Under the pieces are notes generated by a model, which made no database searches, had not been told where the DNA came from, and saw only the letters and a list, made by a program, of their open reading frames with translations. This document shows positions 24,632 through 41,753 of a DNA stretch of 64,000 nt, piece by piece; position 1 is the first letter of the stretch, and the number at the start of each line of letters is the position of its first letter. Source of the DNA: Candidatus Latescibacterota bacterium (GTDB lineage Bacteria; Latescibacterota; UBA2968); NCBI GenBank assembly GCA_965207885.1, contig OZ242311.1, positions 5,024,001-5,088,000 on the forward strand, given 5' to 3'. Position numbers and translations under genes: made by a program.

Positions 24632-24694
24632 CGGGATAAGTCCTTTCTCAATTGTCGGTAGCCAGTCCGCTCAACGCCACATCCCAAAAGCATA

Positions 24695-25204
24695 TCACTC
24701 CCTATCTCGTTGCCTCTCAAAAACGGACAACAACTCATAAAGCATAACCCCTGCAGCTACAGACACATTTAGAGACACTTTTGTTCCCAACATTGGAATA
24801 TGTACAACGCCGTCGCACAAACACAGTGTCTCGGGACGCACGCCCGTCACCTCATGCCCCAAAATCACAGCCACCGGCCAGCGATAGCAAAAGGTTCGAA
24901 AATCGACACTATCTGGCGTTTGCTCTAATGCAACCACCTGAACACCTTGTGAGCGCAAATCGCCAATTACCTCTTCCGTATCCCGTTCATAATGCCAGGG
25001 CACGGCCTCTTCTGCGCCCAACGCCACGCGACTGATTTCCTTGCGCGGGGGACATCCCGTAAACCCCGTCAAATAAATCCCCGATGCATTAATCCCATCT
25101 GCCGAGCGAAAAATCGCGCCCACATTAAACAGTGAACGAACATTTTCCACAACGGCATAAATGGGATAGCCATCGGGTTTGGAAAGCAAATTCATCAGAT
25201 ACAA
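24695..25204 (-). CDS. TrmH/SpoU RNA methyltransferase
   Basis: NVGAIFRSAD, GHEVTG, IPMLG..SLNVSVA. Confidence 0.92.
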   Translation of the reverse strand: MYLMNLLSKPDGYPIYAVVENVRSLFNVGAIFRSADGINASGIYLTGFTGCPPRKEISRVALGAEEAVPWHYERDTEEVIGDLRSQGVQVVALEQTPDSVDFRTFCYRWPVAVILGHEVTGVRPETLCLCDGVVHIPMLGTKVSLNVSVAAGVMLYELLSVFERQRDRE

Positions 25205-25302
25205 AAACGCAAGAAGTAAAAACGCTCTCGCGTCTTACTTCTCGCGTCTCACCTCTCTATTCGGGTCGTTCAATCCAGAAACACACCCATCCTGAAATTC
25301 TT

Positions 25303-25521
25303 CTAATCTATATATCCCGCTTCAGCAGGTGATTCCTGAGATTTTGCGGAACCATTAAAGCGGGTGCGCACCCGTTGAACGGCCTCTCCCAGGCGCGAGC
25401 GCGTATTTCGCCCCGCTTCCGTTCCCAAAAACAATCCCAGAATAGCAAGGCCACCAAGAGCAAGGCCTACAACGAGTCCTACCCAGAAAAATTCGCGATG
25501 CACTTCTTGTCGTCGCCACAT
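25303..25521 (-). CDS. YtxH-like small membrane protein
   Basis: FFWVGLVVGLALGG...G..TRSRL pattern. Confidence 0.6.
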   Translation of the reverse strand: MWRRQEVHREFFWVGLVVGLALGGLAILGLFLGTEAGRNTRSRLGEAVQRVRTRFNGSAKSQESPAEAGYID

Positions 25522-25690
25522 AACACACTCCTTGGAAATATCTCCCGATTGTTTAACCTACAAACTTAAAATGCCCGTCTAATTTCAACCATACACGACG
25601 CGAAGTCAAGCGGAAATAGGCATTCAGGAGCAGACGAACCGACCGAAACAATTTATAGCGCAAAAAAAAATTATCCCTATTTTAAGGGAC

Positions 25691-26911
25691 ATGCCCAACA
25701 AATGGATGCAAAAACTCGACCGTGCCATTGACGCTCAACGCAAAAAAATTGTACGCGTCCGCCGCGATCTGCACATGTATCCCGAACCCAGCGGTCGCGA
25801 AGTGGAAACCACGCGCTATCTCGTCAAATTATTACAACAGACCGGATGCCATATACAGATGGGTCCCAGAGGCTGTGGCGTTATAGCCGACAACACATTG
25901 GAAAAAACGCGTATAGGCATGCGAGCCGATATCGACGCACTTCGCATACAAGATGCCAAAAACGTGCCCTACCGCAGCCGCGTACCAGGCGTGATGCACG
26001 CCTGCGGACACGATGGTCATACAGCCACCGTGCTCGGTGCTGTTCTGGGCCTTCTGGAATGCGACCGGGTATTGCCGTGGCCCGTACACTGGCGCGCCAT
26101 CTTTCAACCTGCTGAAGAAACCAATCGCGGCGCCAAAGACATGATCGCCTTTGGTGCCCTCAAAAACGTCTGTGGCCTGCTCAGTCTTCACCTCGATCCC
26201 TCGCGTCCAACAGGTACCGTGGGCACACGCAAGGGCGTGCTCACAGCCAATTGTGCCGAAATAGAAATTTGTATCCAGGGCCGAGGCGGACATGCCGCTC
26301 GCCCCCGGGAAACACGAGACCCCATCGTCGCTGCTGCTCAGATTATCACTGCGCTCTATCAATCATTGCCTCGCAATGTAGATACCTACGACCCGATTGT
26401 CATATCAATTGGGCATATCTCTGCGGGCGAAAATCCCAACGTCATACCCGGTCAGGCTCTGCTTCGCGGCACCCTTCGCACTCTCAGTGGCAGTTCTCAA
26501 GCCCATGCCATGGACCACATCCTCAAGATTGCCAATGGCATAGCCAATCTCACCGACACGGAAATCGATGTTCGCTTTCTCACCGGTCCCTCATCGGTCA
26601 ACAACGACCCCACACTCACCAAACTGATCCGCCAAAATGCCATCGATCTATTGGGCCAGACACACGTTCAAACCATCGCCAGACCGAGCATGGGGGGCGA
26701 AGACTTTGCCAATTATCTCGACCATGTGCCCGGCAGCCTGTTTCGCCTGGGATGCATGCCCGCCCGGGGGAGTGCCCCGCCCCTGCATGCACCCGACTTC
26801 GACATCGATGAACGCGCCCTCGTTATAGGTGCCAAAATACTCGCGCGCAGCGTCGTCAACTACTTCGATCCATCGCGAAAAAAGAATGGAGCTTGCCATG
26901 ACCCGACTTGA
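25691..26911 (+). CDS. M20 amidohydrolase
   Basis: RADIDAL, HACGHDGH, QPAEE, GGEDF, LHAPDF. Confidence 0.93.
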   Translation: MPNKWMQKLDRAIDAQRKKIVRVRRDLHMYPEPSGREVETTRYLVKLLQQTGCHIQMGPRGCGVIADNTLEKTRIGMRADIDALRIQDAKNVPYRSRVPGVMHACGHDGHTATVLGAVLGLLECDRVLPWPVHWRAIFQPAEETNRGAKDMIAFGALKNVCGLLSLHLDPSRPTGTVGTRKGVLTANCAEIEICIQGRGGHAARPRETRDPIVAAAQIITALYQSLPRNVDTYDPIVISIGHISAGENPNVIPGQALLRGTLRTLSGSSQAHAMDHILKIANGIANLTDTEIDVRFLTGPSSVNNDPTLTKLIRQNAIDLLGQTHVQTIARPSMGGEDFANYLDHVPGSLFRLGCMPARGSAPPLHAPDFDIDERALVIGAKILARSVVNYFDPSRKKNGACHDPT

Positions 26912-28013
26912 ATTTAATCCCAGTAATCAACCCACCCTCGGCGTGGAAATAGAACTGGCTCTGGTCGATGCCAACACCATGGCTTTGTGCAGCAAAAATG
27001 CCGCGATTCTCAATCGCATTCCCGACGAATATGCCGACAAAATCAAGCCCGAATTGATGCAGTGTTATGTCGAAATCAACACCGATATATGTGAAAGTGT
27101 CAGCCATGTAGAAGCCGACCTCAAGCCCAAACTCCAGACGCTATCCAGCGTGGCGGCCGCCGAGAATGTCCAACTCTACTGGTCGGGCACACACCCATTT
27201 TCCACCTGGCGCGAACAAAAAATCACCCCCAATGACCGATACATGGGCCTCGTCAACCTTCTCCAGGACACCGCCCGACAACTGGTCACATTTGGCCTCC
27301 ACGTACACGTGGGCGTCAACAGCGGCGACAAAGCCATAATGATCTGCGACCGAATACTGCGCTATTTGCCCGTCTTGCTGGCGCTTTCGTGCAACAGTCC
27401 ATTCTGGGAAGGTAGGGTCACGGGCTTGCACTCCTGGCGATCAAAAGTAATGGAGGGCCTCCCCACCGCTGGGCTGCCCCCCTTAATGCGCAACTGGAGT
27501 GAATACGTCTGGCTGATCAACCACCTCATCGACACCGGCTATATCGAATCCATCCGCGAAATCTGGTGGGACGTGCGTCCCCACCACGCATTTGGCACCG
27601 TTGAAGTCCGCATTTGCGACATTCCCGGCACCCTCGAAGACACATTGGGATTGGTCGCACTCGTACAGTGTTTAATTTGCAACCTGTCCGACGAAATCGA
27701 CCGGGGAATCTATCAACACGACAGCCACCCCATGCTCATCCGTCAAAACAAATGGCACGCCTCGCGGTACGGCATCGATGCACAACTGGTCGATTCCACC
27801 TCTCACAACCTAAAATCCGTCCCACAAATAACCGAAGAACTCGTCGAAAAACTGCTCTCCATGGCCGAACAGCTCAATTGCGTACCCTATCTCAAACACG
27901 TCCTCGACATGGCTCACCAACCCACCTGGGCGCAACGGCAAATGGATCTCCTCGCCCTCACTGGCGACCCCACCGAAGTCGTCCGCCGCCTGATTAACGA
28001 ACCATCTTCTTGA
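26898..28013 (+). CDS. YbdK-family carboxylate-amine (glutamate-cysteine) ligase
   Basis: TLGVEIE, FGLHVHVG, SPFWEG, WWDVRP, VEVRICD. Confidence 0.92.
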   Translation: MTRLEFNPSNQPTLGVEIELALVDANTMALCSKNAAILNRIPDEYADKIKPELMQCYVEINTDICESVSHVEADLKPKLQTLSSVAAAENVQLYWSGTHPFSTWREQKITPNDRYMGLVNLLQDTARQLVTFGLHVHVGVNSGDKAIMICDRILRYLPVLLALSCNSPFWEGRVTGLHSWRSKVMEGLPTAGLPPLMRNWSEYVWLINHLIDTGYIESIREIWWDVRPHHAFGTVEVRICDIPGTLEDTLGLVALVQCLICNLSDEIDRGIYQHDSHPMLIRQNKWHASRYGIDAQLVDSTSHNLKSVPQITEELVEKLLSMAEQLNCVPYLKHVLDMAHQPTWAQRQMDLLALTGDPTEVVRRLINEPSS

Positions 28014-28416
28014 CCGAATTGCCAACAGACTGCAGAAACTTCACAACTTCTGCGGCTTCCTTGCCTCCCTTTTTAGCATGGATCATCAGCGCAATCCCGT
28101 GTGGTCCCTTTTCATTTACAACCGCTGGATTGTCGTTCACCACCGCCTGTACGATTTCGAGCTTGCCCAGCATGGCCGCCGCAAACAAATCGATACGCGC
28201 ACCCTTGTTCAGCAAAAACTCGGCAATGTCCTTGCGACCCATATGTGCTGCTGCGCCCAGTCCTGTTTCCCAGTCGCCGCCTCCCCAATCCCAGGAAGAA
28301 TTGACGAGTGCCGGTTCTTTCTCAAGCAGCTTTTTTACACTGTCGAAGTCGCCGTGGGCATCTTGGACAAATTGATTGACGAGTTTCGGATCAATAGCAG
28401 AATTATTTTGTGACAT
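27994..28416 (-). CDS. Small ankyrin-like repeat protein
   Basis: AHGDFDSVKKLL, GDWETGLGAAAHMG, GPHGIAL. Confidence 0.8.
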   Translation of the reverse strand: MSQNNSAIDPKLVNQFVQDAHGDFDSVKKLLEKEPALVNSSWDWGGGDWETGLGAAAHMGRKDIAEFLLNKGARIDLFAAAMLGKLEIVQAVVNDNPAVVNEKGPHGIALMIHAKKGGKEAAEVVKFLQSVGNSVKKMVR

Positions 28417-28547
28417 GTTTTCCTTCCTCTCTTGTCGCAGTGCAGTAAAATATTTTGACGATCTGAAAATTCAACAAATTGTAATAACATTTAACTGAGG
28501 ATGCAACGAGAATGAAGAAGAATTTCAGAGGGAGTTGATTCCTCCTT

Positions 28548-29573
28548 TCATTTTTTTACTAATATCTCAATCGCTGTTTCAAAAATGCGATCCGTCCCAC
28601 TTTCCAAAAGCGCGTCCGGCGTCGAAACCCAAACATCGGGTGCAAGGCCAACACCTTCAAAAGGTTCAAAGTTGGAGGTAAACTCTAACCATCTCGGAAC
28701 GCGAGAAGTCCACCCATTGGGCAGTTCACGATACACGGGATTGCCAGAACCCCCTCCCGTTGTATCGCCAACAACCGTGACATGGGGCAAAGTACGCATC
28801 ATAAGCACAAAGGATTCTGCCGCGCTAAAAACGCGACGATTGGTGAGTAAGGCGATTGGTCTGGTAAATGTGATATTGCCTTTGGGTTCAAGATAATCTG
28901 CCTGAAAAGACGTAAAATCGCTGTGATCAGGTCCATTGCGCCATTGGACATGTCGATACAATCGCCTTTCATTTGTAAATCTGCCAGCAATATCCTTTGC
29001 ATTGCGATCATTGCCTCCATCATTGTTGCGGACATCGACAATGAGTCCTTGTATATTGCCCATTTCTCTCAGTGCGATTTCGATGTCGCGTCCCCAATTG
29101 CCACCACTAAAATCGAGAAAACTGCCGATATGCACATATCCAATTTGCTCATCCACCAAGCGATATTGTATCGGACTGTCCGCGACATTTATAGTGAGGT
29201 TCAAATAGTTAATGGCTAAAATCTCGCGGTCATAATTGCGCGGATATTGATCCCACCAGGCAGTGTATGAATAATTTCCCAAAGGCGTGTAAAGATTTAC
29301 ATGCCCATCTCGGAATATTGCGAGCATATTGCTCATAATGAGAAAAAGCTCCTCATCCGTTGTCTGCAATGTGACCTGTGGGCGATAGATGGCATAAACC
29401 GAATCCCAGTCAACGCCTTTGAGTTCAAATGCGGCATAGAGGCGGTCGTATTCTTGCCAGAGGTATTCAAAATTGCTTTCGGGTGTGTTTTCTGGAACAG
29501 AATTGGTAATAGTTCGACTACACCCCATGCACAAGAGAATCAAAATGAGACATATTGACAGACAAGTCTTCAC
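28548..29573 (-). CDS. S41 family serine peptidase, probable lipoprotein
   Basis: Lipobox-like MGC, DVRNNDGG, FSAAESF, VGDTTGGG, EGVGLAPD. Confidence 0.9.
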   Translation of the reverse strand: MKTCLSICLILILLCMGCSRTITNSVPENTPESNFEYLWQEYDRLYAAFELKGVDWDSVYAIYRPQVTLQTTDEELFLIMSNMLAIFRDGHVNLYTPLGNYSYTAWWDQYPRNYDREILAINYLNLTINVADSPIQYRLVDEQIGYVHIGSFLDFSGGNWGRDIEIALREMGNIQGLIVDVRNNDGGNDRNAKDIAGRFTNERRLYRHVQWRNGPDHSDFTSFQADYLEPKGNITFTRPIALLTNRRVFSAAESFVLMMRTLPHVTVVGDTTGGGSGNPVYRELPNGWTSRVPRWLEFTSNFEPFEGVGLAPDVWVSTPDALLESGTDRIFETAIEILVKK

Positions 29574-29575
29574 CT

Positions 29576-30328
29576 CTAAAACCTCCAATTGATCAACGCA
29601 CTCATTTGATCAATGCCGATTTGCACGCTACGCGGTTCGGTATAGCGATAGAGTTGCCCCCAATATTGTATCTGAAAAGACCATCTATTAGAAAGATTAT
29701 GCGTCCAGACGAGATTGTGTTCCACGCTTAAAAATTGATGCAGACTTGTTGTATCGAAGTCTCCGTTTCCACCCATGCCATGGGCATGACGCCATAAGAA
29801 TGCGAGCGCGGGTACAGACAGGCTATAAGATAAAGATGATTGAGATGTCCATTCAAATTGCAATGCGATTGAAGGTTGCACCGAACCTATGAGTTCACCA
29901 AAATATTCACGGCGAGATTGTGAGTAAAATTGTCTGCGAACATGAATAAATGCCTGTTGAACAACCCCCCAAAGCAACCGAATGCGCCCGGGCGATTCAG
30001 ACCTGAAGGATCGGTGATATGCATATCTCACTTGAATGCGCGTTAATTCAACCCTGTGATTGCGCCCTCGGGTAATAGACGATGTGAGCAGCCCAGCATC
30101 CCAAATAAAGGATATATGATGACTGCGTTTGGCATTTTGAGCGCGATATTTGATGAGCCACCCTCGACCATCTCCATTGTACGTAAATGGCGAAGCCAGA
30201 TTGTCCTTGCTACGCATCGCGAACAAACCGAGACCAATACCGAATTGCCGCATATTTTTTGTCTCAGCCTTCACAGATTGCGCGATCAACACACAACCGA
30301 CCAAGACCAAACCAATATATTTCACCAT
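29576..30328 (-). CDS. Outer-membrane beta-barrel protein
   Basis: Signal peptide, amphipathic beta strands, C-terminal WRF. Confidence 0.7.
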   Translation of the reverse strand: MVKYIGLVLVGCVLIAQSVKAETKNMRQFGIGLGLFAMRSKDNLASPFTYNGDGRGWLIKYRAQNAKRSHHISFIWDAGLLTSSITRGRNHRVELTRIQVRYAYHRSFRSESPGRIRLLWGVVQQAFIHVRRQFYSQSRREYFGELIGSVQPSIALQFEWTSQSSLSYSLSVPALAFLWRHAHGMGGNGDFDTTSLHQFLSVEHNLVWTHNLSNRWSFQIQYWGQLYRYTEPRSVQIGIDQMSALINWRF

Positions 30329-30366
30329 AAAATTAGATCTCGTGTGTATTGCAAAAGGAGTGAGTT

Positions 30367-30430
30367 CTGGATCGCGGCTAAAGCATGTCCCTGCAATGGT
30401 GTTGAGCAGGGACCCAGGCTGCGATGACGG
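30367..30430. repeat. REP-like nested palindrome
   Basis: ATCGCGGC..GTCCCTGC..GCAGGGAC..GCTGCGAT-GACGG. Confidence 0.5.
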
Positions 30431-30486
30431 CTTTGTTGGTAGGAATGAGTTAAAGCAAAAAACTTATTCGAAAAACCTCTCACCTT

Positions 30487-32286
30487 TCATCTGCGAATAC
30501 TCTTGACCGCTCCCACATCTTTCCCCCATAAAAGACTCAAACTAAAGCTCAATTCCAGACCGCTGAAATTTTTGCGACCTCTTATTGGCTCCGCAAAATT
30601 TGCAATCAGATGATAGCCCGCGCTTGCGCCGAGCATCAAATACCTTCCGATGGCAAAATCAACACCACCACCGATATAAGCTCCCAAACTGGCTTGAATA
30701 CGACCTTCTTGAACGATCCTCGATGTAGTCAAGTCGAGATTTAGCTTTTCAAGATCAGCCTGAACGTTGACAGTTCGCCCCTCATCGTCTTCTTGCACCT
30801 TAACGCTAACGCCTTCCGCCTCAATATCGACGTTTGGTACATCTCGTCCTATACCAACTTTTTGAGAGGTGTCTGATAAAAAATAGGATCCCGCACTTGC
30901 GACAACATAAGGGCGAAAAGGGGATGGTGCCAGAGGCCAGTAGTACCTTACACCAAAAAGCAGAGGCATAACAACGACGGCATCCTCTGATATGCCTATA
31001 ACACCCACATTTTGCTCGATCTCTGCAATCAACCCAGCCCATCGAACCATCAAAGCCAGATTTTCTTTGAGCTGATAGATATAAGCGACAGCCCCCATCA
31101 CATTCTCTGCACTCTGCTGTACCAATCCGCTCCCTACACTTTGCCGCGCCAATCCGCCTGTGCTGGTAGTAGATCTTCCAACTGGATTCCAATATCCGCC
31201 GCGCAATTCGATCCGAGAGCGCTTTACGCTATATTTAATCCCGCCCCGAGTTGTGGTACGTTCTCGCGCAACAATTTCAAAATCATCTTCGTCAAGTATC
31301 TCGCGCTGTCCCATCGCCAATTCGACCGAAGCTGTAGCCGATTGAATCTCACGGGCCATGTGAACGCGATACGTGCCGGGTTCCAAACCCAACTCAACGC
31401 GCCGTCCAGCGGGCTTGAACAACTCTGCGATCAACTGTCGATTGGCATTTCGAATAAAAAATCGCCCCTGAAGCGACTCCGCCAAAACCAGTCCCGCCGA
31501 CGTTTGTCGCACATCCGTCATCACCACATCGCCCGTACCCGTCATCTTGATATCATAAGCTGGATGCTGTGCCCCTCCTCGTGTGCGTTCCGTGCCCTCC
31601 AATGTATTTTGAAACGCGAAGTGATAGGCTTCATTCAACGTGACGCGCCCATCTCCGGTCACATCTGCTGCACCGCGCAATCCCGACACCAGATAATGCG
31701 AAAAAAATGACGCCCCAATCGCATCCGACTCCTGCGCCGCTTCATCTTCCGAACTCGACGTCAAAAACGCATACCCCCGCATATCCGACGACGCATCCAC
31801 CATAAACGCTTTCTGGCGTCTCCCGCCCTTCAATCGCGTAATCGCACCAGAAGCACAGGCATCCAAAATAGCAATATGCACTTCGGCTTCCATCCTATCC
31901 ATTGCATTGCGTAGGCGTGCGTAGGAAAAAAGCGATTCACCCAGGCGAAGGCCATTTTCATCGGCGTGGCCCGAATAATAGATAATCACCTCTCTCCGCG
32001 CTGCTTCAGCAGACGCAACCCGATTGTGCAATACGTACAAAGCCTCTTCAAGATGGTCAATGTGCGGATCGGATAACAAAACACCGGCATCAACCCCACC
32101 CATTGTTTCCATGACCTGCACAAAATTTTGAGCATCAGAGACAGCATATTGCAGGGTCTCGCGCTTTGCCCCGCCATCATTGGCACCCACAGCCAGCACC
32201 CACCGCCGCACGCCATCTACCGCATACAGATCTTGAACAATCAGAACACAGAGTACCATCATAAGAGCCAAAACGCGACCAAACAT
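30487..32286 (-). CDS. Secreted caspase-like (C14) peptidase fused to a C-terminal beta-barrel
   Basis: Signal peptide, YYSGHAD (His), LDACASG (Cys), OmpW/OmpA-like strands RPYVVASAG..GGGVDF. Confidence 0.88.
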   Translation of the reverse strand: MFGRVLALMMVLCVLIVQDLYAVDGVRRWVLAVGANDGGAKRETLQYAVSDAQNFVQVMETMGGVDAGVLLSDPHIDHLEEALYVLHNRVASAEAARREVIIYYSGHADENGLRLGESLFSYARLRNAMDRMEAEVHIAILDACASGAITRLKGGRRQKAFMVDASSDMRGYAFLTSSSEDEAAQESDAIGASFFSHYLVSGLRGAADVTGDGRVTLNEAYHFAFQNTLEGTERTRGGAQHPAYDIKMTGTGDVVMTDVRQTSAGLVLAESLQGRFFIRNANRQLIAELFKPAGRRVELGLEPGTYRVHMAREIQSATASVELAMGQREILDEDDFEIVARERTTTRGGIKYSVKRSRIELRGGYWNPVGRSTTSTGGLARQSVGSGLVQQSAENVMGAVAYIYQLKENLALMVRWAGLIAEIEQNVGVIGISEDAVVVMPLLFGVRYYWPLAPSPFRPYVVASAGSYFLSDTSQKVGIGRDVPNVDIEAEGVSVKVQEDDEGRTVNVQADLEKLNLDLTTSRIVQEGRIQASLGAYIGGGVDFAIGRYLMLGASAGYHLIANFAEPIRGRKNFSGLELSFSLSLLWGKDVGAVKSIRR

Positions 32287-32332
32287 TGCAATTCTTCCTC
32301 CTTTGGACCTCTCTCCTCATCCGTGATATAAT

Positions 32333-34012
32333 CTAAAACGCCCGCCGAAACCGCACCCAAACCCGCCAATCAACCGGACCGTTCGCATCCAGCGGCCGGG
32401 CAAAAAACACGCGCAAATTATCGGTCTTTAATCCAAATCCCGCACTCGTTACAACCCGTGTTTCAACAGGCCCTCTATCCGAAAACCACGCCTTACCCGC
32501 ATCAAAAAATACACCGATGCCAACATCATCTAAAGGCCAGTCATCCCTAAAATGAGCTTCGCCATCAACCCAATAAATCGCATTAAACAGCACCATGCGA
32601 TCTCCCTCATAAGCATTCAATCCATAACCCCTAAGCGAAGAAGGACCTCCGAGACGATAGAGAAATTGCACGGGCACACGTCCTCGTCCAGTACCCGCGC
32701 GAACGCGCAAATTCAATTGGGTCCCACGCCCCGCATACTGATAGCGGCGCACATCCAGGATATAGCGTTCAAAATCAAAATCGCCTCCCCAAATACCACC
32801 TGCTTTCTCAGCCTGTGCCATTAAACGCCATCCCTGTCGAGACCGTTGGCTCGCACGACTATCTAACTGTAGTGTACCCATTACACTGTGCATTTGCCCG
32901 GCCTCAATCTCTGGATTGGGTCGAAAATTCATCCGGCTGCCCCATCGATCGCCAAATAGATTCCAGGAAACGCTATTGGGCATCGACTCGAAAACATCTA
33001 CACCCACCTGTCCTCGAACCTCTACCATCCGATCAAAATCCCGAAAAATATAAGTACTGGCCCCCTCCCGACGATAATAGTCTCTAAAATCGCGTCGCAA
33101 CAAAAAGGCAAAAATCGAATTTTCTATCTCATCAATACGCCAATTATCTTGCGTATTTGTCAACCCGTGCAATTCAAAACCCAGCGCGACCATGTTGTCC
33201 TTTGACGCACCAGAAAAAGTAAAAAACTCAGCACCAGCCTGATAATCCCACCGATTACTCCCAAATCCATAACCCACTTCGCCATAGTGCGCCACCCCGC
33301 GCGAAGTGCGATATTTCAATGGCAAGCGCCAGCCAATAAAAACGCCATCCACCCGATTGTAACGCACCAAAAAATCTTCGTGATCAATGCGCCAAATATT
33401 CGAAAATGGGGCGATATGTGCCTTCCATGAACCCAGGCGGTGGTGTGCTATGTGGGAGACAGACGGTTTATATCCGGGCAATAAACGAGCAACGCGATCA
33501 AAAGCCTCCACCTCTAATTCCCGACCAACAGTTCCCATTTTATCAACTTGAACAACACCAACCACATTGACCAGCGTTAAAGTGGCAGCCTTGCGATCAT
33601 GGACCATTGCAAACAGACCAATAACAGCATCTGCTTCCTTCTGTAAATACACCGATACGCGCTCGCGTTTCTTCCGTGACTGAACGGTTATCTCCCAACC
33701 CATCGCATCTAAATATCGCGCAATTTTGTCCATACGCATTGCAATCTCATCAACCGACAGAACATGCACGCGCACCAGCTTCAGGTCTGATAAGGCCTCA
33801 CCAACTTTTTTATTTTTATTTTTGACCCTTTCAGCGACCTGCTGCAACATCAATTGTCCAATAGACACATCCGCAGTGACATCTTTGGACTCAAACACAT
33901 CCAGTGATCCAACCGCCACATAACCCAAATGACTGGAAATATCTTGCTGTGCATTCGCGATTCCATAAATGAAAAAACAAATGACACTCGCGCACAAAAT
34001 CATTCGGTACAT
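32333..34012 (-). CDS. DUF4252-like domain fused to an Omp85/BamA-like outer-membrane barrel
   Basis: Signal peptide, RYNRVDG, LGGPSSLRGY, VFFDAGKAW, terminal F. Confidence 0.65.
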   Translation of the reverse strand: MYRMILCASVICFFIYGIANAQQDISSHLGYVAVGSLDVFESKDVTADVSIGQLMLQQVAERVKNKNKKVGEALSDLKLVRVHVLSVDEIAMRMDKIARYLDAMGWEITVQSRKKRERVSVYLQKEADAVIGLFAMVHDRKAATLTLVNVVGVVQVDKMGTVGRELEVEAFDRVARLLPGYKPSVSHIAHHRLGSWKAHIAPFSNIWRIDHEDFLVRYNRVDGVFIGWRLPLKYRTSRGVAHYGEVGYGFGSNRWDYQAGAEFFTFSGASKDNMVALGFELHGLTNTQDNWRIDEIENSIFAFLLRRDFRDYYRREGASTYIFRDFDRMVEVRGQVGVDVFESMPNSVSWNLFGDRWGSRMNFRPNPEIEAGQMHSVMGTLQLDSRASQRSRQGWRLMAQAEKAGGIWGGDFDFERYILDVRRYQYAGRGTQLNLRVRAGTGRGRVPVQFLYRLGGPSSLRGYGLNAYEGDRMVLFNAIYWVDGEAHFRDDWPLDDVGIGVFFDAGKAWFSDRGPVETRVVTSAGFGLKTDNLRVFFARPLDANGPVDWRVWVRFRRAF

Positions 34013-34024
34013 ATTCCCCTCCGA

Positions 34025-35593
34025 TCAGAATAACAACAAACCCAACCCCACGCTGTACTCCATTCCACTATAATCCGTTTGCCCATCCACCGGCACAGCA
34101 AAAGGCTCGACAAACCGATTATAGCCTATGCGTCCACCCAGAACAAAAGACTTCAAAAACGGCACATCCAGTCCACCACCCCAATACAACCCATTCACTT
34201 CATCGACATTCTCATCCAATACTTTACCCGTGTACCGACCAACGCCTCCTTCGGCATAAGGGCGCAGAGGTGAACGCCACATATTCAAAGGCATATAAAT
34301 ACGCAGACTGACCAGCTCAGATGACACGCCTGCTTTTTTTTCATCGTCAGCAAACGAAAATCCCGAACGAGAATAATTGATCGAAACATGTTCTGTGGGC
34401 CAGAATCCAAAAATCCAGGCTTTGCTATCATCCCCCAGTTGCCATGCGCCCCTGCTGCGTTCAAGACGCCATCTGCCGGATAGCCTGTGTGGATAGCGGG
34501 CAGATGTCCCGGTTGTTGGCTTCCTCAACGCAGGCCCTCGGCTCGTGGTTTTTTCGCGCACTTGAGAGCGAAAATGCCGATTCTCAAGCAAAAACCGCTC
34601 ACCCTTTTTTAACGCGACCTTTGAATGCAACAATTGCATTCGGTGTTCAAAATGAATGTCATAAACCTCGGGTTCCAATCCCAACTCGAGCGTTTGCCCG
34701 GCGGTCTTGTCCAGCTCTGCCACCAGTTGCTCCTGCGAATTGCGCACAAAAAATCGGCCATTCAACTCATCCGACAAAATCAAACTCGCCGATGTCTCTC
34801 GCACATCGGTCATCACCACATCGCCTGTACCCGTCATCTTAATATCATAAGCCGGATGCTGCGCCCCTCCCTGAGTTTTTTCGGTTCGCTTCAGCGTATT
34901 GCGAAATGCAAACGCATACGCTTCGCTGAGTGTCACCTTGCCATCACCAGTCACATCTGCTGCACCCCGCAAGCCAGACACCAGATAATGCGTGAAAAAC
35001 GATCCGCGAATGCGATCCGATTCTTGTGCAGCCTCATTTTCGGAACTCGAAGTCAAAAACGCATACCCCCGCATATCCGACGACGTATCGACCATAAAGG
35101 CTTTTTGCCTTTGCCCGCCTTTCAGGCGCGTAATAGCGCCCGAAGCACACGCATCGAGCACAGTAATATGCACATCCGCCTGAACGCTATTCATTGCATC
35201 GCGCAAAGCGCGATAGGTCAACCGATCTTCTCCCAACAGCAACCCATTTTCATCGGCATGCCCCGAATAATACAGGACAACTTCGATGCGACTCGACGAT
35301 TGGGATGCTTTTATAACCCGAGATTGCAAATCCATCAAAACCCGTTTAAAATTTTCCAAACTCGGCTCGGCCAATAAAAATTGATCCTCAGATTCAACTC
35401 CCCCCATCATCTCTAAAACACGAGCAAAATGTTTTGCATCCGATACGGCATAACGCAGAGGTATGCGTTTCTCCCCACCAAAATTTGCGCCAGCCGCCAA
35501 CACAAAACGCCGCACAACCTGTGATGCCTCAATTCCCTGAGCACATAACAGCAGACCGATCCCCAACAGTACTACCCATCGGCGCAACATCAC
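34025..35593 (-). CDS. Secreted caspase-like (C14) peptidase fused to a C-terminal beta-barrel
   Basis: Signal peptide, YYSGHAD, LDACASG, RPYAEGGVG..GGGLDV, terminal LLLF. Confidence 0.88.
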   Translation of the reverse strand: MMLRRWVVLLGIGLLLCAQGIEASQVVRRFVLAAGANFGGEKRIPLRYAVSDAKHFARVLEMMGGVESEDQFLLAEPSLENFKRVLMDLQSRVIKASQSSSRIEVVLYYSGHADENGLLLGEDRLTYRALRDAMNSVQADVHITVLDACASGAITRLKGGQRQKAFMVDTSSDMRGYAFLTSSSENEAAQESDRIRGSFFTHYLVSGLRGAADVTGDGKVTLSEAYAFAFRNTLKRTEKTQGGAQHPAYDIKMTGTGDVVMTDVRETSASLILSDELNGRFFVRNSQEQLVAELDKTAGQTLELGLEPEVYDIHFEHRMQLLHSKVALKKGERFLLENRHFRSQVREKTTSRGPALRKPTTGTSARYPHRLSGRWRLERSRGAWQLGDDSKAWIFGFWPTEHVSINYSRSGFSFADDEKKAGVSSELVSLRIYMPLNMWRSPLRPYAEGGVGRYTGKVLDENVDEVNGLYWGGGLDVPFLKSFVLGGRIGYNRFVEPFAVPVDGQTDYSGMEYSVGLGLLLF

Positions 35594-36348
35594 CTGCCCC
35601 CTTTATAAAGCGTAATGGCAAATTGCTCAAACCCTCTTCCCACTTGCAATGAATCGGGACCGCCCTTTGCCGCTTGTGCCACATCGCGCACGTCAAAAGA
35701 CATATCTGCTGTCAAAAAATAAAACCGTTCCCACTTTGGGGCATCATCCAGTTCGTAAGAATAATCCAGAGACACCGGATCGCCCTGTATCAAGCGCACG
35801 GCACTTGTTCCCGATGAGGGCAAATGCCGCGTCACAGTGCCGCGCCCATCCACAGACACAATCACCCCAAAAGGCTTGCCCGCCGCGCGATAAAAAATCT
35901 GAATCAAATCGCCTGTATAAGCCACACTGCTATCCGACAATTGTTCAATCTCAGACGCCCTTTTTCGATACAACAACAAATCCGGCTTTACGCCTTTTAA
36001 CCGAATGCCATCCATCCCTTTCCGATCCCAGGGTGGCGGCACTTCAGGCCCCGGTAAATAGATCGAAAAAACAACGGCGAGCAAAATCACAGCGGCCAAT
36101 GCCAAACGCGGACCGAACCGCGATATACTCGGCACCCCTCGCCTCTCCGACCGGCGCGCAACCTGCCGCGCAACCCACTCAGTCGGATAGGACGCGTGAA
36201 TTTCTCGATCTGACCCTTCCAATGCCTCCAGGCGCGCTCTCAAATCCGGGTCCTCATCCAGCGCCCTTTGAACAGCTCTCATTTCTTCTTCCGGCAATTC
36301 ATTCAGCCGAAAACGCTCCAGTTTCCAATCACCGCGTTGTCTCCTCAT
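35590..36348 (-). CDS. Putative membrane anti-sigma factor with a periplasmic DUF4384/ActD-like domain
   Basis: Degenerate ASD-like N-terminus (LERFRLNELP..L...R..LE.L), one TM, IRLKG, GDLIQI..VSVDGRG..SYELDDAP..ERFYF; overlaps the sigma gene stop. Confidence 0.75.
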   Translation of the reverse strand: MRRQRGDWKLERFRLNELPEEEMRAVQRALDEDPDLRARLEALEGSDREIHASYPTEWVARQVARRSERRGVPSISRFGPRLALAAVILLAVVFSIYLPGPEVPPPWDRKGMDGIRLKGVKPDLLLYRKRASEIEQLSDSSVAYTGDLIQIFYRAAGKPFGVIVSVDGRGTVTRHLPSSGTSAVRLIQGDPVSLDYSYELDDAPKWERFYFLTADMSFDVRDVAQAAKGGPDSLQVGRGFEQFAITLYKGGR

Positions 36349-36818
36349 AGATCCTCCAACTTCTCCAGCGATTCTCGCAACCCCCGCAACCGTTTTCGCA
36401 CTCCAGAAACCGACATACCAACCTCCCGAGCGACTTCCGCCAATGTGAAACCATCCACAAAATGTAAAACCGCAATTGTTCGCGTCGAATCTCTGTGCCG
36501 GGCAAAAAGCCGGTCGAGCATCGCCCGAGCATCCAACCGCGATTCCAGATCTTCAATCCCAGCAATGTGTATCAACTTCTCATCACCCGGCAGATCGAGC
36601 CGCTGATCGCGAATGCGATTCAAACACACATTGGTCGCAATGCGATATAGCAAACTCGACGGATAGGTCGCTTTCAGACGATCCCGGCGTTGCAATACCC
36701 GCACAAAAACATCTTGCATGGCATCCATGGCGCGATCTTCATCTCGCAACAACCGCCGACAGCGACGCAACACCATAGGACCGTATTTTTGATATAACAA
36801 TTCGACATTCATAAACAA
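36345..36818 (-). CDS. ECF sigma70 factor
   Basis: DAMQDVF, LYRIATNVC, G.TLAEVAREVGMSVSGVRKRL. Confidence 0.92.
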   Translation of the reverse strand: MFMNVELLYQKYGPMVLRRCRRLLRDEDRAMDAMQDVFVRVLQRRDRLKATYPSSLLYRIATNVCLNRIRDQRLDLPGDEKLIHIAGIEDLESRLDARAMLDRLFARHRDSTRTIAVLHFVDGFTLAEVAREVGMSVSGVRKRLRGLRESLEKLEDL

Positions 36819-36835
36819 CCCATCGCTTTATTTTT

Positions 36836-36863
36836 TAACACATCACACAGACCAAAATGTTAC
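36836..36863 (-). promoter_or_regulatory. Candidate ECF autoregulatory promoter
   Basis: GTAAC-N17-GTGTTA just upstream of the sigma gene. Confidence 0.45.
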
Positions 36864-37010
36864 TTTTTTTTGGCAGGCACAAGATCGAGATGAATTTAAA
36901 CGCTCGCCTGAGAAGGAAAATTTGGTTGCTTATTTTTTTTATCCTTTATAGATTATCTGTTCTGTCTAACAACCCCCGTCCCTCAAAAACGATTCCACAG
37001 GTCATAAACT

Positions 37011-38288
37011 ATGAGCACCCCCGAAACAACACGCGAAACGGCTGGCGATACACCAGCCAATGCCCCTTCAGACGACGCGCCCACTGTCGAAGAACTCGAC
37101 AAAAAATACGCTGAAGACACACCTGATACCGAATTTGCCGCATTACTCGAAGAAAGCGATAAGCAGAGTCATCGCGAGGTCTCTACTGGCGACAAAGTCA
37201 CTGGAACCATCCGCGAAATCGGTGACTCCACAGCTTTTATCGACTTTGGCGGCCGCAGTGAAGCATCAATAGACATTCAAGAACTGCGCGACGAATCGGG
37301 CGAATTGAAATACAAGGCTGGCGATACCATCGAAGCCTTTGTCGCCAGCACCGATGGCGAAATACGCCTGGCATTTTCGTTGCGCGTTTCCAGTCGTCAA
37401 CTCCTGCGTCAAGCACATCAAAACGACATGCCCATCGCCGGCAAAGTCACCGGCTTCAATACCGGAGGCCTTGTGGTGAATATCGGCGGCCTTCGCGCAT
37501 TCTGCCCCATGTCACAAATCGACACGGGATATTGCGACGACCCGGCTTCGTATGCGGGCCAAACCCACAACTTCAAAATTGTTGAACTGCGAGGACGCAA
37601 CAATGTCGTCGTTTCACGCCGCGCTTATCTGGAAGAAGAAAATCGCAAAAAAGCCGACGAGATGCGCCAAAAACTCTCAGAAGGTGAAGAAAGAACGGGA
37701 ACCATTACACGCATAGAACGCTTCGGCTCTTTTGTTGACCTCGGAGGAGTTGAAGGTCTGGTACACGTCTCGGAAATCAGCCACACCCGTGTAGAAAATC
37801 CGCGCAGTGTCCTAAAAAAAGGCGAAGAAGTGCGCGTGAAAATAATCGGCCTCAAGAATCTGGGCAAAAAAAATGAGCGCATATCGCTCTCTATCAAAGC
37901 ACTGGAAAGAGATCCCTGGGATACGGTAGCAGAGCGCTACCAATCGGGCAGCATCATTACCGGCAAAGTCGTTTCAATCCAAAATTTCGGTGCCTTTGTC
38001 GAAATTGAACCCGGTATTGAGGGGCTGATCCACATCTCGCAGTTCGTCTCGGGAAAACGCATCTCAAACCCCAGCGAAGTCGTTTCAGTCGGTCAAGAAG
38101 TCAAAACCTTGATCCGCGAAATCGATTTGGGTAAAAAACGCATTTCACTCTCAATGCGCGCCGTTGAAGAACAAGATAGGCAAACGGCTGAAATTGAGGA
38201 CATGGCCGCATTCAAATCCAAGCAAACGCAAGAGTCTCAAAGCGACAATGCCATGGCCGACGCCCTTCGCCGTGCAGGACTCGCCTGA
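37011..38288 (+). CDS. S1-domain RNA-binding protein (short RpsA-like, about 4 S1 domains)
   Basis: FGSFVDLGGVEGLVHVSEIS, FGAFVEIEPGIEGLIHISQ. Confidence 0.9.
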   Translation: MSTPETTRETAGDTPANAPSDDAPTVEELDKKYAEDTPDTEFAALLEESDKQSHREVSTGDKVTGTIREIGDSTAFIDFGGRSEASIDIQELRDESGELKYKAGDTIEAFVASTDGEIRLAFSLRVSSRQLLRQAHQNDMPIAGKVTGFNTGGLVVNIGGLRAFCPMSQIDTGYCDDPASYAGQTHNFKIVELRGRNNVVVSRRAYLEEENRKKADEMRQKLSEGEERTGTITRIERFGSFVDLGGVEGLVHVSEISHTRVENPRSVLKKGEEVRVKIIGLKNLGKKNERISLSIKALERDPWDTVAERYQSGSIITGKVVSIQNFGAFVEIEPGIEGLIHISQFVSGKRISNPSEVVSVGQEVKTLIREIDLGKKRISLSMRAVEEQDRQTAEIEDMAAFKSKQTQESQSDNAMADALRRAGLA

Positions 38289-38304
38289 GAGGCCGTTAAA
38301 ATTC

Positions 38305-38369
38305 AGCGGTCAGTTTTGCGCCATCACGTCTCATTGGGTGATCGTTAAAAACTGACCGCTTATTTTTTT
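38305..38369 (+). terminator. Intrinsic terminator
   Basis: AGCGGTCAGTTTT...AAAACTGACCGCT followed by T tract. Confidence 0.7.
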
Positions 38370-38377
38370 ATGTTAAA

Positions 38378-38719
38378 ATGTCTAAAAACACCGACAACAA
38401 CGCGCTCCTGAAGGATGTCCGATTTCAAACTATGCGCGGGTCTGGCCCCGGCGGTCAACATCGCAACAAAGTTGAAACCGCCGTACGCGCGACCCACATA
38501 CCCACGGGTATTGCGGTCATCGCCACAGAACACCGCTCACAACACCGCAACAAACAACTCGCCCTCGAACGTTTGCAAAACCGCTTGAACGAGCGCAACA
38601 AAAAGCGCAAACCGCGCATCAAAACCCGCCCCAACCGATCTTCGATCGAGAAACGCCTGGAAAAAAAACGCCAGCGTGCAGAAAAAAAACGCCAGCGACA
38701 ACGCGTGGTCAACAATTAG
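38378..38719 (+). CDS. Class-I release-factor-like ribosome rescue peptidyl-tRNA hydrolase (ArfB-like)
   Basis: [21 protein letters not shown], basic C-terminal tail. Confidence 0.85.
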
Positions 38720-39711
38720 CTCCCAAAATGATCATATCCCAACTGCTCCAATAGCACGCGCTTGCCATCCTCATCTTCTATCATCACACGACCATCGCCA
38801 GCCACAACCTCGCCAATGCGACAAATAGAATACTGTTCTGCCAGTGCTTCGACCTTATCGACCTGTGTGTGAGACACAGAAAATAGCAACTCAAAATCTT
38901 CCCCTCCAGTGAGAGCAAGATCCAATTTTTCTTTCTCACTCACTTCACAAAATTTCACAAACGCCAGCGACATGGGAATCGTCGCTGCCCGAATCACAGC
39001 CGACACGCCACTTTGCTGGCAAACATGGCTCAAATCCGAAGCCACCCCATCCGACACATCGATCATCGCTGTCACCGCACCTGTCTCCGCCAATACCTGC
39101 CCCAAATCCAACCGAGGCTCAGGCCGATAATGCCTTTGTAACAACGCGGTTCGCACCTCACCTGGCAGATCGACATCACCCAATACCAGCCCCAAACCAC
39201 CTGCAGCATCGCCCAATGTCCCCGATACATAGACAGCATCACCCACTTGTGCGCCAGACCGATAACACACCTGGTCTCGCGCCATCTCACCCGTAAGCGT
39301 CAAACTCAAAACCAGCGCACCAGACGTGCGCGTTGTATCACCGCCCACAACAGCCACATCAAACCGATCTGCACAGGCAAAAAGCCCGTTGTAAATACGC
39401 TCCACATAACCCACATCACAATCACCCGATGCGCTGACCGCCACAACCGCATCCGTTGGTTTCCCTCCCATAGCAGCCACATCGGACAAACTCGCAGCCA
39501 GTAATTTGTACCCCACACCTTCTGGCGGTGCCTGTGACACAAAGTGTACGCCCTCAACCATCGCATCAACCGTCACCAATCGCACGCGCGCCTGCCCGGC
39601 AGCCATAACAGCGCAATCATCTCCAATCCCACACAGAACCCGATTGCGCTGTGCGTGCGCGGCAATGCGATCAATAAAATCGAACTCTCCGATATCCTTA
39701 AACCGATCCAT
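38716..39711 (-). CDS. thiL: Thiamine-monophosphate kinase
   Basis: [38 protein letters not shown]. Confidence 0.93.
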
Positions 39712-39712
39712 C

Positions 39713-40477
39713 TCACTTTTCCCCCCACGCCCACGCCACAACATCTCGATACGCCACATCGCCCCCAAAAATATCCAGCGCACTGCCAATAGTCAGATCT
39801 ACCCGCCCCTGGCCCAGCACATTGACGCGGTGCATATCCGATAGCTCTCGCACCCCGCCTGCATAAGTTACCGGCACGGGTGACCATTTGCCCAATAATT
39901 CCACCAGAGGTTCTTCTACACCTGCTCGTTTGCCCTCAACATCAACCCCATGCACCAAAAACTCAGCACAATAGCCGGCCAACGCACTCAAAGTCTCCTC
40001 GCCGACAGTCACATCCGTAAATCTTTGCCAGCGATCCGTTACAACAACATAATCATCACCGCGCCTTCGACAACTCAAATCCAGAACCAAACGCCCTCTA
40101 CCCACAGTCTGTATCATCTCATCCAACCGCCTCATATCAATTTGCCCATCTCGGAAAACATAAGACGTCACAATTACATGGCTTGCACCCGCACGCAAGA
40201 ATTTTTTCGCATTATGTGGCGTGATACCCCCACCCATATGCAGACCCTCGGGAAACGCCTCCAGAGCCTCCAACGCCGCCGCTTCATTGCCCGGCCCAAG
40301 CGCAATCACATGGCCGCCCCAAAATCCATCCTCGCGATACAGCCGTGCATAATCCGCAGGAGAGCGTTCGGTCTCAAAATTTGTCACCGTGTGCTGGGCA
40401 TCCCCATCGCGCAACGTGCCCCCCACGATTTGTACAACCCGACCATCTTTCAAATCAATACACGGTCTGAATTTCAT
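39713..40477 (-). CDS. hisA: ProFAR isomerase, eukaryote-like (HIS6-type)
   Basis: MKFRPCIDL, GGHVI, LVLDLSCR, HGVDVEG, DLTIGSALDIFGG. Confidence 0.9.
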   Translation of the reverse strand: MKFRPCIDLKDGRVVQIVGGTLRDGDAQHTVTNFETERSPADYARLYREDGFWGGHVIALGPGNEAAALEALEAFPEGLHMGGGITPHNAKKFLRAGASHVIVTSYVFRDGQIDMRRLDEMIQTVGRGRLVLDLSCRRRGDDYVVVTDRWQRFTDVTVGEETLSALAGYCAEFLVHGVDVEGKRAGVEEPLVELLGKWSPVPVTYAGGVRELSDMHRVNVLGQGRVDLTIGSALDIFGGDVAYRDVVAWAWGEK

Positions 40478-40609
40478 GTGATCTACCCAACGGGCGGGCA
40501 CGGGAACACCGCCCCTACAACTTTCTGTAAAAAATATGGATTACAAACATATTATGTGTTATTTTTCTATTTATATCAACATCAACCGCGATCATCCCAA
40601 GGAAACTTT

Positions 40610-41728
40610 ATGCAAGATCCCCGACTTGAAAAACTCGCCGATGTCCTAATTCGCCATTCCACAAAGTTACAAGCGGGCGAAACCGTCCTCATTCAAGGCT
40701 ACGACATGCCCGAAGACATGATCATTGCACTCATTCGCAAAGTGCGCGAAGTCGGCGGCATTCCCCTGGTATCCATGAAAAACAACCGCATCCAACGCGA
40801 ACTCATCCATACAGGAGATGTCGCCACCATGCAACAAGCAGGCGATTACGAAGCCTTCCGAATGAAGCGCGTACAGGCCTATATCGGTCTGCGCGGTAGC
40901 CGCAACATCTCAGAATTATCAGATGTATCCAGCACCGCGATGAATATTTACGAAAAACACTGGCTCAAACCCGTGCATTTTGCTATCCGCGTGCCGCATA
41001 CCAAATGGGTAGTCTTGCGATGGCCCACACCTTCTATGGCACAACAGGCGCAACAAAGTACTGAAGCTTTTGAAGATTTTTACTTTGACGTCTGCACGCT
41101 CGACTATGGCAAAATGGCCGAAGCGGTTGTACCCCTCCAAAAACGCATGGAACAAACCGAGCGCGTGCGCATCACCGGAGTCGATACCGATCTATCCTTT
41201 AGCATCAAAAACATACCAGTCAGACCCTGTACGGGACTTCGCAACATCCCCGATGGCGAGTGTTTTACCGCACCGGTGAAATACTCAGTAAACGGTCACA
41301 TCCATTTCAACGTTCCCACTATCTATCGCGGTACAACATTTTCAGATATCAAACTGACCTTTCAAGCGGGCAAAATCATCGACGCGATCGCAAATGACAC
41401 CGATAAACTCAACGATATTCTCGACACCGATAAAGGCGCGCGTTATATTGGTGAATTTGCCATCGCATTCAACCCCTATATCACATCGCCTATGCTCGAT
41501 ATCCTCTTCGACGAGAAAATAGCGGGCTCATTCCACTTTACACCCGGAAATGCCTATCCCGATGACGCCGACAACGGCAACCGCTCTGCCGTACACTGGG
41601 ACATGGTATTTATCCAAACACCCGAATACGGCGGAGGAGAAATCTACTTCGACGACGAGTGCATTCGCAAAGACGGGCATTTTGTCGTAGAAGACCTCAA
41701 AGGGCTAAACCCCGAAAACCTCAAATAA
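40610..41728 (+). CDS. M29 aminopeptidase (AmpS/PepS type)
   Basis: NIPDGECFTAP, IGEFAI, LFDEKIAGSFH, SAVHWD; the ORF-track N-terminal extension is antisense to hisA. Confidence 0.92.
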   Translation: MQDPRLEKLADVLIRHSTKLQAGETVLIQGYDMPEDMIIALIRKVREVGGIPLVSMKNNRIQRELIHTGDVATMQQAGDYEAFRMKRVQAYIGLRGSRNISELSDVSSTAMNIYEKHWLKPVHFAIRVPHTKWVVLRWPTPSMAQQAQQSTEAFEDFYFDVCTLDYGKMAEAVVPLQKRMEQTERVRITGVDTDLSFSIKNIPVRPCTGLRNIPDGECFTAPVKYSVNGHIHFNVPTIYRGTTFSDIKLTFQAGKIIDAIANDTDKLNDILDTDKGARYIGEFAIAFNPYITSPMLDILFDEKIAGSFHFTPGNAYPDDADNGNRSAVHWDMVFIQTPEYGGGEIYFDDECIRKDGHFVVEDLKGLNPENLK

Positions 41729-41753
41729 ACTAAAATAGCTTTCACAACTGCCC

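Follow-up and report, generated by a model that had tools for sequence, protein, structure and literature searches.

A widespread extracytoplasmic function sigma factor module with a metacaspase-like protease predicted to be tethered to the outer membrane

We analysed a stretch of 64,000 nucleotides (nt) from a Candidatus Latescibacterota bacterium (GCA_965207885.1, contig OZ242311.1, positions 5,024,001–5,088,000; hereafter the window), in which seven open reading frames (ORFs), all on the minus strand, span positions 28548–36818. Read along the operon, they encode a 157-residue sigma factor of the extracytoplasmic function (ECF) type (36345–36818), a single-pass anti-sigma-like protein of 252 residues (35590–36348), a caspase-like protease with a C-terminal barrel (caspase 1, 522 residues, 34025–35593), a protein with DUF4252 and an Omp85-family barrel, a second caspase-barrel protein (caspase 2, 599 residues, 30487–32286), a 250-residue exported protein that is possibly a small outer-membrane barrel, and an S41 peptidase. 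An earlier note, made from the sequence alone, had placed seven co-oriented genes here, and all of them are found at those positions. The first three genes are the most closely joined, with 4-base overlaps between sigma and anti-sigma and between anti-sigma and caspase 1, such that start and stop codons of the trio overlap; the gaps after caspase 1 measure 12, 46, and 158 bases, and the small-barrel and S41 genes overlap by 13 bases.

The conserved unit at this locus consists of three genes—the ECF sigma, the anti-sigma with its single membrane pass, and a C14 caspase homologue that is exported and ends in a barrel. All 19 loci that we retrieved by way of the caspase show the order sigma, anti-sigma, caspase, including one in which sigma and anti-sigma are truncated (L006), one in which the anti-sigma is split between frames (L017), and one with a 2.1-kb insertion between anti-sigma and caspase (L014:8046-9978, carrying a 378-residue ORF that belongs to no family). 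Within the window's phylum, the anti-sigma profile matched 71 of 168 genomes, and the 66 strong matches had a caspase less than 300 nt downstream in 55 cases, at 300–3000 nt in seven, and none in four. Counted in reverse over the same genomes, 69 of 71 caspase-domain matches lay no more than 6 kb downstream of an anti-sigma match. The four anti-sigmas that lack a caspase are cases of decay or artefact. G083 carries a TnpB-like insertion, G087 retains what a deletion left of sigma and anti-sigma, G071 has a stand-alone paralogue in a different context, and in G070 the contig stops. Decayed modules take several forms, among them the replacement of caspase 1 and most of the Omp85 gene by the TnpB-like gene (G083, L033:3203-4435) and deletions that leave a truncated sigma joined to the last part of the anti-sigma (L034/G087, L006/G089).

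The trio also occurs in Acidobacteriota, where 11 of 301 sampled genomes carry the anti-sigma, always with the sigma adjacent (11/11) and with the caspase directly downstream in ten and upstream in one. The linkage on which the earlier note had staked its proposal is thus present elsewhere, with sigma, anti-sigma, and caspase together in the two phyla surveyed. A wider range, suggested by metagenome-assembled genomes labelled ‘Gemmatimonadetes’ or ‘Planctomycetota’ (L012, L013, L017; G168, G170, G171), was rejected: G168, G170, and G171 share contig coordinates with G116, G113, and G121, which are listed in the window's own phylum on a GTDB basis. Because these labelled genomes recur within that phylum, we claim the module for two phyla only.

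The sigma factor itself is of the ECF type (sigma-70 group 4), with sigma-2 and sigma-4 regions only in its 157 residues. Both regions score above the Pfam cut-offs (Sigma70_r2, 54.4 bits, E 1.1e-14; r4_2, 26.5 bits, E 5.1e-6), TIGR02937, with its cut-off at 42.9, reaches 69.9 bits, and identity to the sigmas of the Acidobacteriota loci is 55–66%. The main text of the ECF classification by Casas-Pastor et al. 2021 contains none of the terms ‘caspase’, ‘peptidase’, ‘C14’, or ‘DUF4252’, though its supplements may list the group.

A promoter that the earlier note had proposed at 36836–36863 proved to be real: on the minus strand, GTAACA-N16-GTGTT occupies 36837–36863, leaving 18 bases to the start codon of sigma, and the element is conserved across phyla. 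The pattern GT[GA]ACA-N16-G[GT]GTT is exact in 24 of 30 sequences, at most 170 nt upstream of sigma, with five more showing one mismatch and one (L028) lacking it upstream of sigma; two of the 30 (L016 and L023) represent a single locus. Distant loci have unrelated spacers. Since this ECF-type pattern is conserved upstream of sigma, autoregulation is supported. A wider regulon, sought with the same pattern across the genome, cannot be claimed—the 23 matches observed compare with approximately 35 expected, the pattern being too short—and only one further match is intergenic. This sole other copy lies outside the window on the minus strand (G000:C1:4009460-4009486), 39 nt upstream of a gene for a 740-residue protein whose first 60 residues, read by eye, suggest a signal peptide and a carboxypeptidase-regulatory-like start; it may be a chance match, given the roughly 35 expected genome-wide.

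The anti-sigma was characterised chiefly through an AlphaFold2 model (mean predicted local distance difference test score, pLDDT, 85), which contains four N-terminal helices (7–14, 20–32, 34–53, and 56–69), a transmembrane helix (80–97), a disordered linker (99–116), the tetrapeptide R116-L-K118-G119, and a periplasmic beta-sandwich (123–249). Profile matches were sparse: an NCBIfam anti-sigma family aligned weakly over residues 13–90 (E 1.7e-5, 24.5 bits against a cut-off of 225), no Pfam family matched even at E<=10, and no solved structure was found at E<=0.001, the fold resemblances being to generic Ig-like domains only. It is not a zinc-binding anti-sigma, residues 1–70 having no Cys and a single His, and an H-x3-C-x2-C column is conserved in none of 68 anti-sigma relatives. 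Across those same relatives, K118 and G119 are invariant (68/68) and R116 is present in 66. In L005 and L009 a four-residue duplication in the linker doubles the K-G, giving R-L-K-G-V-I-K-G-V-K-P-D where the window has R-L-K-G-V-K-P-D. The family is large, with 2226 clusters in a 50%-identity library at E<=1e-30. Identity of the periplasmic domain with DUF4384 was considered and is unsupported; the lead came from an Atlas match (0.79) to a cluster in which 10% of members carry DUF4384, and the Pfam search was empty at E<=10. The name ‘ActD-like’, used in the earlier note, is a genuine NCBI label that two of the anti-sigma relatives bear; in a search of the literature on the act operon, ActC/ActD, and MXAN_3215-3217, we found no text stating what ActD is.

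Both caspases match Peptidase_C14 (PF00656), caspase 1 with 44.9 bits and caspase 2 with 34.5 against a cut-off of 21.4, and both keep the His (SGH) and Cys (DAC) dyad that had been noted earlier. Residues H112, C149, D52, and D147 of caspase 1 do not vary among the relatives aligned (61/61). Its structure model (mean pLDDT 77) shows a signal-peptide helix, a C14 domain (27–240) with a low-confidence loop (151–188), a beta-sandwich (269–352), and an eight-stranded barrel (375–521). Foldseek matched the barrel to the OprF N-domain (1.6e-7), NspA, OmpA, and OmpW (E 1.6e-7 to 1e-5) as well as to OmpX and Ail, and the protease domain to procaspase-7, caspase-3/6, and MALT1. In the model the barrel is OmpA-like, of the type with eight antiparallel strands and both ends on the periplasmic side, whereas the Pfam family OMP_b-brl scores 18.9 bits, below its cut-off of 28.7. 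Because a signal peptide (judged by eye, as for both caspases) is combined with an OmpA-like barrel, the modelled topology suggests that caspase 1 is suspended in the periplasm by an anchor in the outer membrane. The conserved acidic residues bear on specificity: HMMER aligns the caspase segment LrYavsDA with LRGCINDA of metacaspase-1, such that D52 corresponds to the Asp of C-I-N-D-A, though metacaspases of solved structure are matched weakly by the profile (E 0.005–0.9). From this alignment and from the D-x-C motif, D52 and D147 are equated with Asp95 and Asp211 of TbMCA2, which are described in the accessible parts of two papers as acidic S1 residues that accommodate basic P1 residues (PMC4357240, PMC6426788). 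As both S1 aspartates are present, the enzyme is predicted to have a metacaspase-type S1 pocket and to cut after Arg or Lys. It is probably an active, metacaspase-like enzyme.

The window genome holds two copies of this caspase, both in this operon. Caspase 2 shares 61% identity with caspase 1 over residues 5–354 and is the type that follows the anti-sigma in relatives without caspase 1, standing directly after it in L008, L009, and L010 and, in L014, after the 2.1-kb insertion. Neither copy belongs to the EACC1-associated caspases of NF047832 (59.7 and 55.8 bits against a cut-off of 140). Caspases from a different family of the phylum are approximately 700 residues long (L011:9992-12097, L012:9995-12085, L017:9995-12100), the small barrel being replaced by an end of about 330 residues with G-W-Q / G-x-Q-x-G-x-x-N repeats and a hydrophobic C-terminus.

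What might such a caspase do next to an anti-sigma? The reading that we tentatively favour is that regulated proteolysis starts with a cut made in the anti-sigma by the caspase. The analysis establishes the gene order with its conservation, the folds, the catalytic and S1 residues, and the promoter; how sigma is bound, the cleavage, the signal, and the sequence of steps are inferred, as follows. The core would be a self-regulated module of three genes, in which the four-helix N-terminal domain of the single-pass anti-sigma may hold the ECF sigma at the inner membrane, its periplasmic part reaching out as a flexible linker followed by the Ig-like beta-sandwich. At the outer membrane, the eight-stranded barrel would leave the metacaspase-like protease and its own beta-sandwich hanging into the periplasm. 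An envelope signal would then lead the caspase, as a predicted Arg/Lys cutter, to cleave the anti-sigma in or near the linker, with R-x-K-G as the candidate site; an M50-family site-2 protease would clear the remaining stump, and the freed sigma would use GTRACA-N16-GKGTT to transcribe its own operon. The copy in this genome has further gained the second caspase-barrel paralogue together with the DUF4252-Omp85 gene, plus the small-barrel/S41 pair. Two M50 (PF02163) genes score above cut-off in the genome (G000:C1:4379479-4380729 and 4417872-4418405), so a site-2-type protease for regulated intramembrane proteolysis is at hand and that route is a candidate for this anti-sigma. In favour of the reading stand the linkage in both phyla, the overlapping genes, the invariant dyad, the acidic S1 pocket, the predicted topology, the M50 genes, the conserved promoter, and the DdvA precedent described below. 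The earlier proposal had also assigned ligand sensing to the barrel; we do not uphold this part, as no result indicates ligand sensing.

Where the disordered part of the anti-sigma meets the folded part, the tetrapeptide R-x-K-G is almost invariant; it is invariant in the low-confidence caspase loop after the catalytic Cys, and it is the only conserved three-of-four motif common to the two proteins. We keep it as a candidate cleavage site and reject the sharing as statistical evidence, for when the conserved letters of the anti-sigma were shuffled, 970 of 5000 shuffles did equally well, which is not significant. This null result is one of several points that weigh against cleavage by the caspase. 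The anti-sigma Arg is not universal, because the divergent loci L030 and L031 carry G-I/T-K-G there, while their caspase keeps R-A-K-G-G; K118 and G119 could merely cap the beta-sandwich; the genome promoter scan found no wider regulon; and no result shows binding or cleavage of the anti-sigma. Complex prediction with caspase residues 25–356 and anti-sigma residues 98–252 scored 0.00 twice, the controls not having been folded, and speaks neither for nor against binding.

A further point against concerns what the operon delivers. ECF operons often carry their main target, and the caspase may accordingly be the output of the pair, which would sense through other proteases and then induce an outer-membrane-tethered protease for envelope remodelling, degradation, or killing, any feedback on the anti-sigma being incidental. 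In L012 and L017 the ORF that comes next runs on the opposite strand, so that no co-oriented gene succeeds the caspase, and in L011 the contig ends soon after the caspase. Because the caspase is thus the only non-regulatory gene in these three operons, a role as output fits them equally well; its co-transcription behind an autoregulated promoter and the scarcity of convincing further promoter copies in the genome point the same way. We nonetheless regard this account, the main rival, as possible rather than probable. The very strict one-to-one pairing of the anti-sigma family with the caspase subfamily, together with translational coupling, is expected of partners, if no proof of partnership; moreover, the only two caspase copies in the genome both sit in this operon, and none of the seven proteins has a PADLOC defence match.

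Strict linkage and coupling would also suit a partner that does not cut at all. The caspase-barrel protein might bind the anti-sigma beta-sandwich as an RseB-like co-sensor or protector and report on outer-membrane condition, while its protease would serve only its own maturation—an arrangement for which the periplasmic beta-sandwich found in both proteins and the conserved R-x-K-G-G in the loop after the catalytic Cys, suited to self-processing, could be cited. Kinship of the two beta-sandwiches is, however, not detectable (hhalign probability 0.6%), and the invariance of the dyad and both S1 aspartates (61/61) points to a working protease with a substrate, which makes this explanation unlikely.

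Cleavage of the anti-sigma by the caspase, the reading that we favour, has one more elaborate variant, in which the barrel-fused caspase would be a built-in probe of outer-membrane protein assembly. As long as the barrel is inserted, the outer membrane would retain the protease, at a distance from the membrane-proximal R-x-K-G; were barrel insertion to fail, the enzyme would be free in the periplasm and could cut the anti-sigma; and the sigma would then raise the operon, whose products here include a barrel of the Omp85 family and, for quality control, an S41 peptidase. If true, the DegS/unfolded-porin alarm would have a counterpart based on a caspase. Taken jointly, these steps seem to us distinctly improbable.

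The four genes after caspase 1 present a different picture from the trio. The DUF4252-Omp85 protein (559 residues, 32333–34012) matches Omp85 with 36.7 bits against a cut-off of 24 and, at its N-terminus, DUF4252 with 31.5 bits, also above cut-off. As it has no POTRA match at E<=0.01 and DUF4252 in the N-terminal position instead, we consider it an Omp85-barrel protein and not an equivalent of BamA or TamA; TIGR03303 scores 15.9 bits against 297. It is present in seven of 11 near relatives, in every case with caspase 1, and a second caspase is present in five. The earlier description of the 250-residue protein (29576–30328) as an outer-membrane barrel is kept as a possibility: a signal-peptide-like start and a C-terminal Phe agree with it, whereas no family matches in Pfam, NCBIfam, or PADLOC and the only lead is an Atlas match to DUF3316 (0.97). 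The last gene (28548–29588) encodes a serine peptidase of 346 residues with Peptidase_S41 (99.8 bits) and Tricorn_C1 (50 bits) domains and, judged by eye, a lipobox-like LLCMGC. It is not a C-terminal processing peptidase (Prc/Ctp, S41A), having no PDZ match in Pfam, Tricorn_C1 instead, and 47.7 bits against 218.6 for TIGR00225. The small-barrel and S41 genes are complete in one of the 11 near relatives (L009), where they again adjoin each other; short S41 remnants occur in L001 and L010, and S41 is missing from all eight of the distant loci within L011–L019.

Tail-specific proteases act as site-1 proteases in some cell-surface signalling systems, and a peptidase with a signal or lipoprotein-like start at the end of this operon invites the thought that S41 makes the first cut in this genome, the caspases having another role. 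We consider this very unlikely, since S41 is too rarely present to be the first protease: the near relatives hold a single complete copy and the eight distant loci none, it has no PDZ match, and metagenome contigs of run X14 join position 28538 to 32295, which implies natural forms without it. Other contigs of that run join 32211 to 35581. With these joints, natural variants exist without caspase 2, barrel, and S41, or without caspase 1 and Omp85. The joint 32211/35581 falls where the two caspase genes are homologous in their 5' parts, a position that recombination between paralogues would predict.

Tail genes vary even among relatives whose caspases are 91–97% identical, and alternative tails carry leucine-rich repeat (LRR), PD40/dockerin, Fic, and TnpB-like genes. 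Gene exchange between close relatives has a hot spot in this tail of the operon. Examples come from L002–L009, including L003:14972-19461, L009:11765-14908, and L008:11721-15479, with LRR proteins of 762–1047 residues. Caspase 2 and the small-barrel gene are separated by 158 bases (30329–30486), an interval that contains the 8-bp inverted repeat GTCCCTGC ... GCAGGGAC and looks like the edge of the exchangeable tail; many metagenome contigs break or continue unlike the window at loose ends within 30365–30438. The seven genes had been proposed as a single system, a unit that does not survive the comparison, the last four being present or absent between close relatives. The second caspase, DUF4252-Omp85, small barrel, and S41 are co-transcribed, exchangeable cargo and not parts of the switch.

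Around the operon lie unrelated genes of housekeeping type, with ankyrin, GCS2, and M20 proteins on one side, the ankyrin gene adjoining the operon at 27994–28416, and S1-domain and RF-1-domain proteins on the other. GC skew is negative in every 1-kb bin from 24000 to 42000 of the window (−0.04 to −0.39), irrespective of gene strand. Scans of 27800–37100 for terminators and sigma-70 promoters returned site numbers not above those of shuffled sequences. A defence-system reading was dropped, as none of the seven proteins matches a PADLOC defence family. In a metatranscriptome library (X20), contigs with 90–95% likeness cover sigma, anti-sigma, caspase 1, Omp85, and some of caspase 2, and a single contig spans 35056–36286; these contigs give neither start nor strand, DNA carry-over is possible, and gaps in their coverage carry no meaning. 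Relatives of the window's lineage appear in sponge metagenomes: runs from several studies contain one third to one half of the sampled words of the stretch, and one (X5) covers 30 of its 30 bins.

In the RpoE-RseA system, a single-pass anti-sigma is cut in the periplasm by the site-1 protease DegS and then by the M50 protease RseP, and the operon is autoregulated. Our module resembles it in its single-pass anti-sigma, its autoregulated operon, and the M50 genes of this genome; it differs in that the candidate site-1 enzyme is a clan CD cysteine protease at the outer membrane, DegS being an inner-membrane serine protease of the HtrA type. By analogy, the closest mechanistic precedent, with another architecture, is DdvS/DdvA of Myxococcus xanthus, for which the accessible text of a 2024 paper describes a single-pass anti-sigma with a fused periplasmic TPR-CHAT region and proposed self-cleavage before RseP (PMC11506125). 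In both systems an ECF sigma is, or would be, held by a single-pass anti-sigma, and a periplasmic caspase-fold His-Cys dyad is proposed for the first cut. The TPR-CHAT of DdvA, however, spans approximately 900 residues within the anti-sigma polypeptide, whereas here the protease is a separate, outer-membrane-anchored C14 protein and the anti-sigma has 252 residues with a beta-sandwich of about 130, which is not the DdvA type. The N-terminal domain of DdvA binds zinc, while no His/Cys zinc motif is visible here; and DdvA controls a CBASS/CRISPR island, while a PADLOC scan found no linked defence genes at our locus.

Other precedents share the association of a caspase fold with a sigma factor. 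Asplund-Samuelsson et al. 2012 reported four sigma-70/metacaspase operons in M. xanthus DK1622, along with entries from Anaeromyxobacter, Haliangium, Sorangium, Ralstonia, and Fibrobacter (PMC3501461). The likeness, a metacaspase gene sharing an operon with a sigma factor, is one of description only, the association being listed in the text available to us without anti-sigma, barrel, promoter, or mechanism (PMC3501461). Type I metacaspases and orthocaspases such as TbMCA2 and yeast Mca1, as far as the consulted sections describe them, have in common with the window caspase the His-Cys dyad, SGH, D-x-C, and both S1 aspartates (PMC4357240, PMC6426788); the window caspase differs as an exported protein that also contains a beta-sandwich and, C-terminally, an OmpA-like barrel. 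Kaur et al. 2021 predicted EACC2-caspase/ECF sigma/DUF1822 systems in which, according to the portions consulted, a caspase domain would likewise couple a stimulus to an ECF sigma (PMC8195603); EACC, DUF1822, and TRADD-N are absent from the window operon. In type III-E CRISPR systems, the caspase-fold protease Csx29 is aimed at the putative anti-sigma factor Csx30, as summarised in PMC11506125. That system, Craspase, the analogy drawn in the earlier note, is cytoplasmic, RNA-guided, and TPR-CHAT based, and nothing related to CRISPR is linked to the window operon. The earlier remark that no mechanistic description exists holds for the split sigma/anti-sigma/barrel-caspase form in the literature open to search, subscription journals and supplements being beyond reach.

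Pairs of ECF sigma and anti-sigma factors are a major route of bacterial signalling. To our knowledge, the first protease has not been identified for most ECF groups, and we know of no settled roles for most bacterial caspase homologues. Against this background, an anti-sigma family that is almost always encoded with one metacaspase-like protease, apparently tethered to the outer membrane, in both phyla surveyed defines a widespread ECF module that is real and previously uncharacterised, here duplicated and extended by cargo. The picture of the window is corrected at the same time—Omp85, S41, and the second caspase form an exchangeable cargo, carried in an operon tail prone to recombination. 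With three genes and a defined promoter, the module is small enough to be rebuilt in a laboratory strain. If the caspase does cut the anti-sigma, it would represent a new class of site-1 enzyme and give bacterial caspase homologues a clear function other than death.

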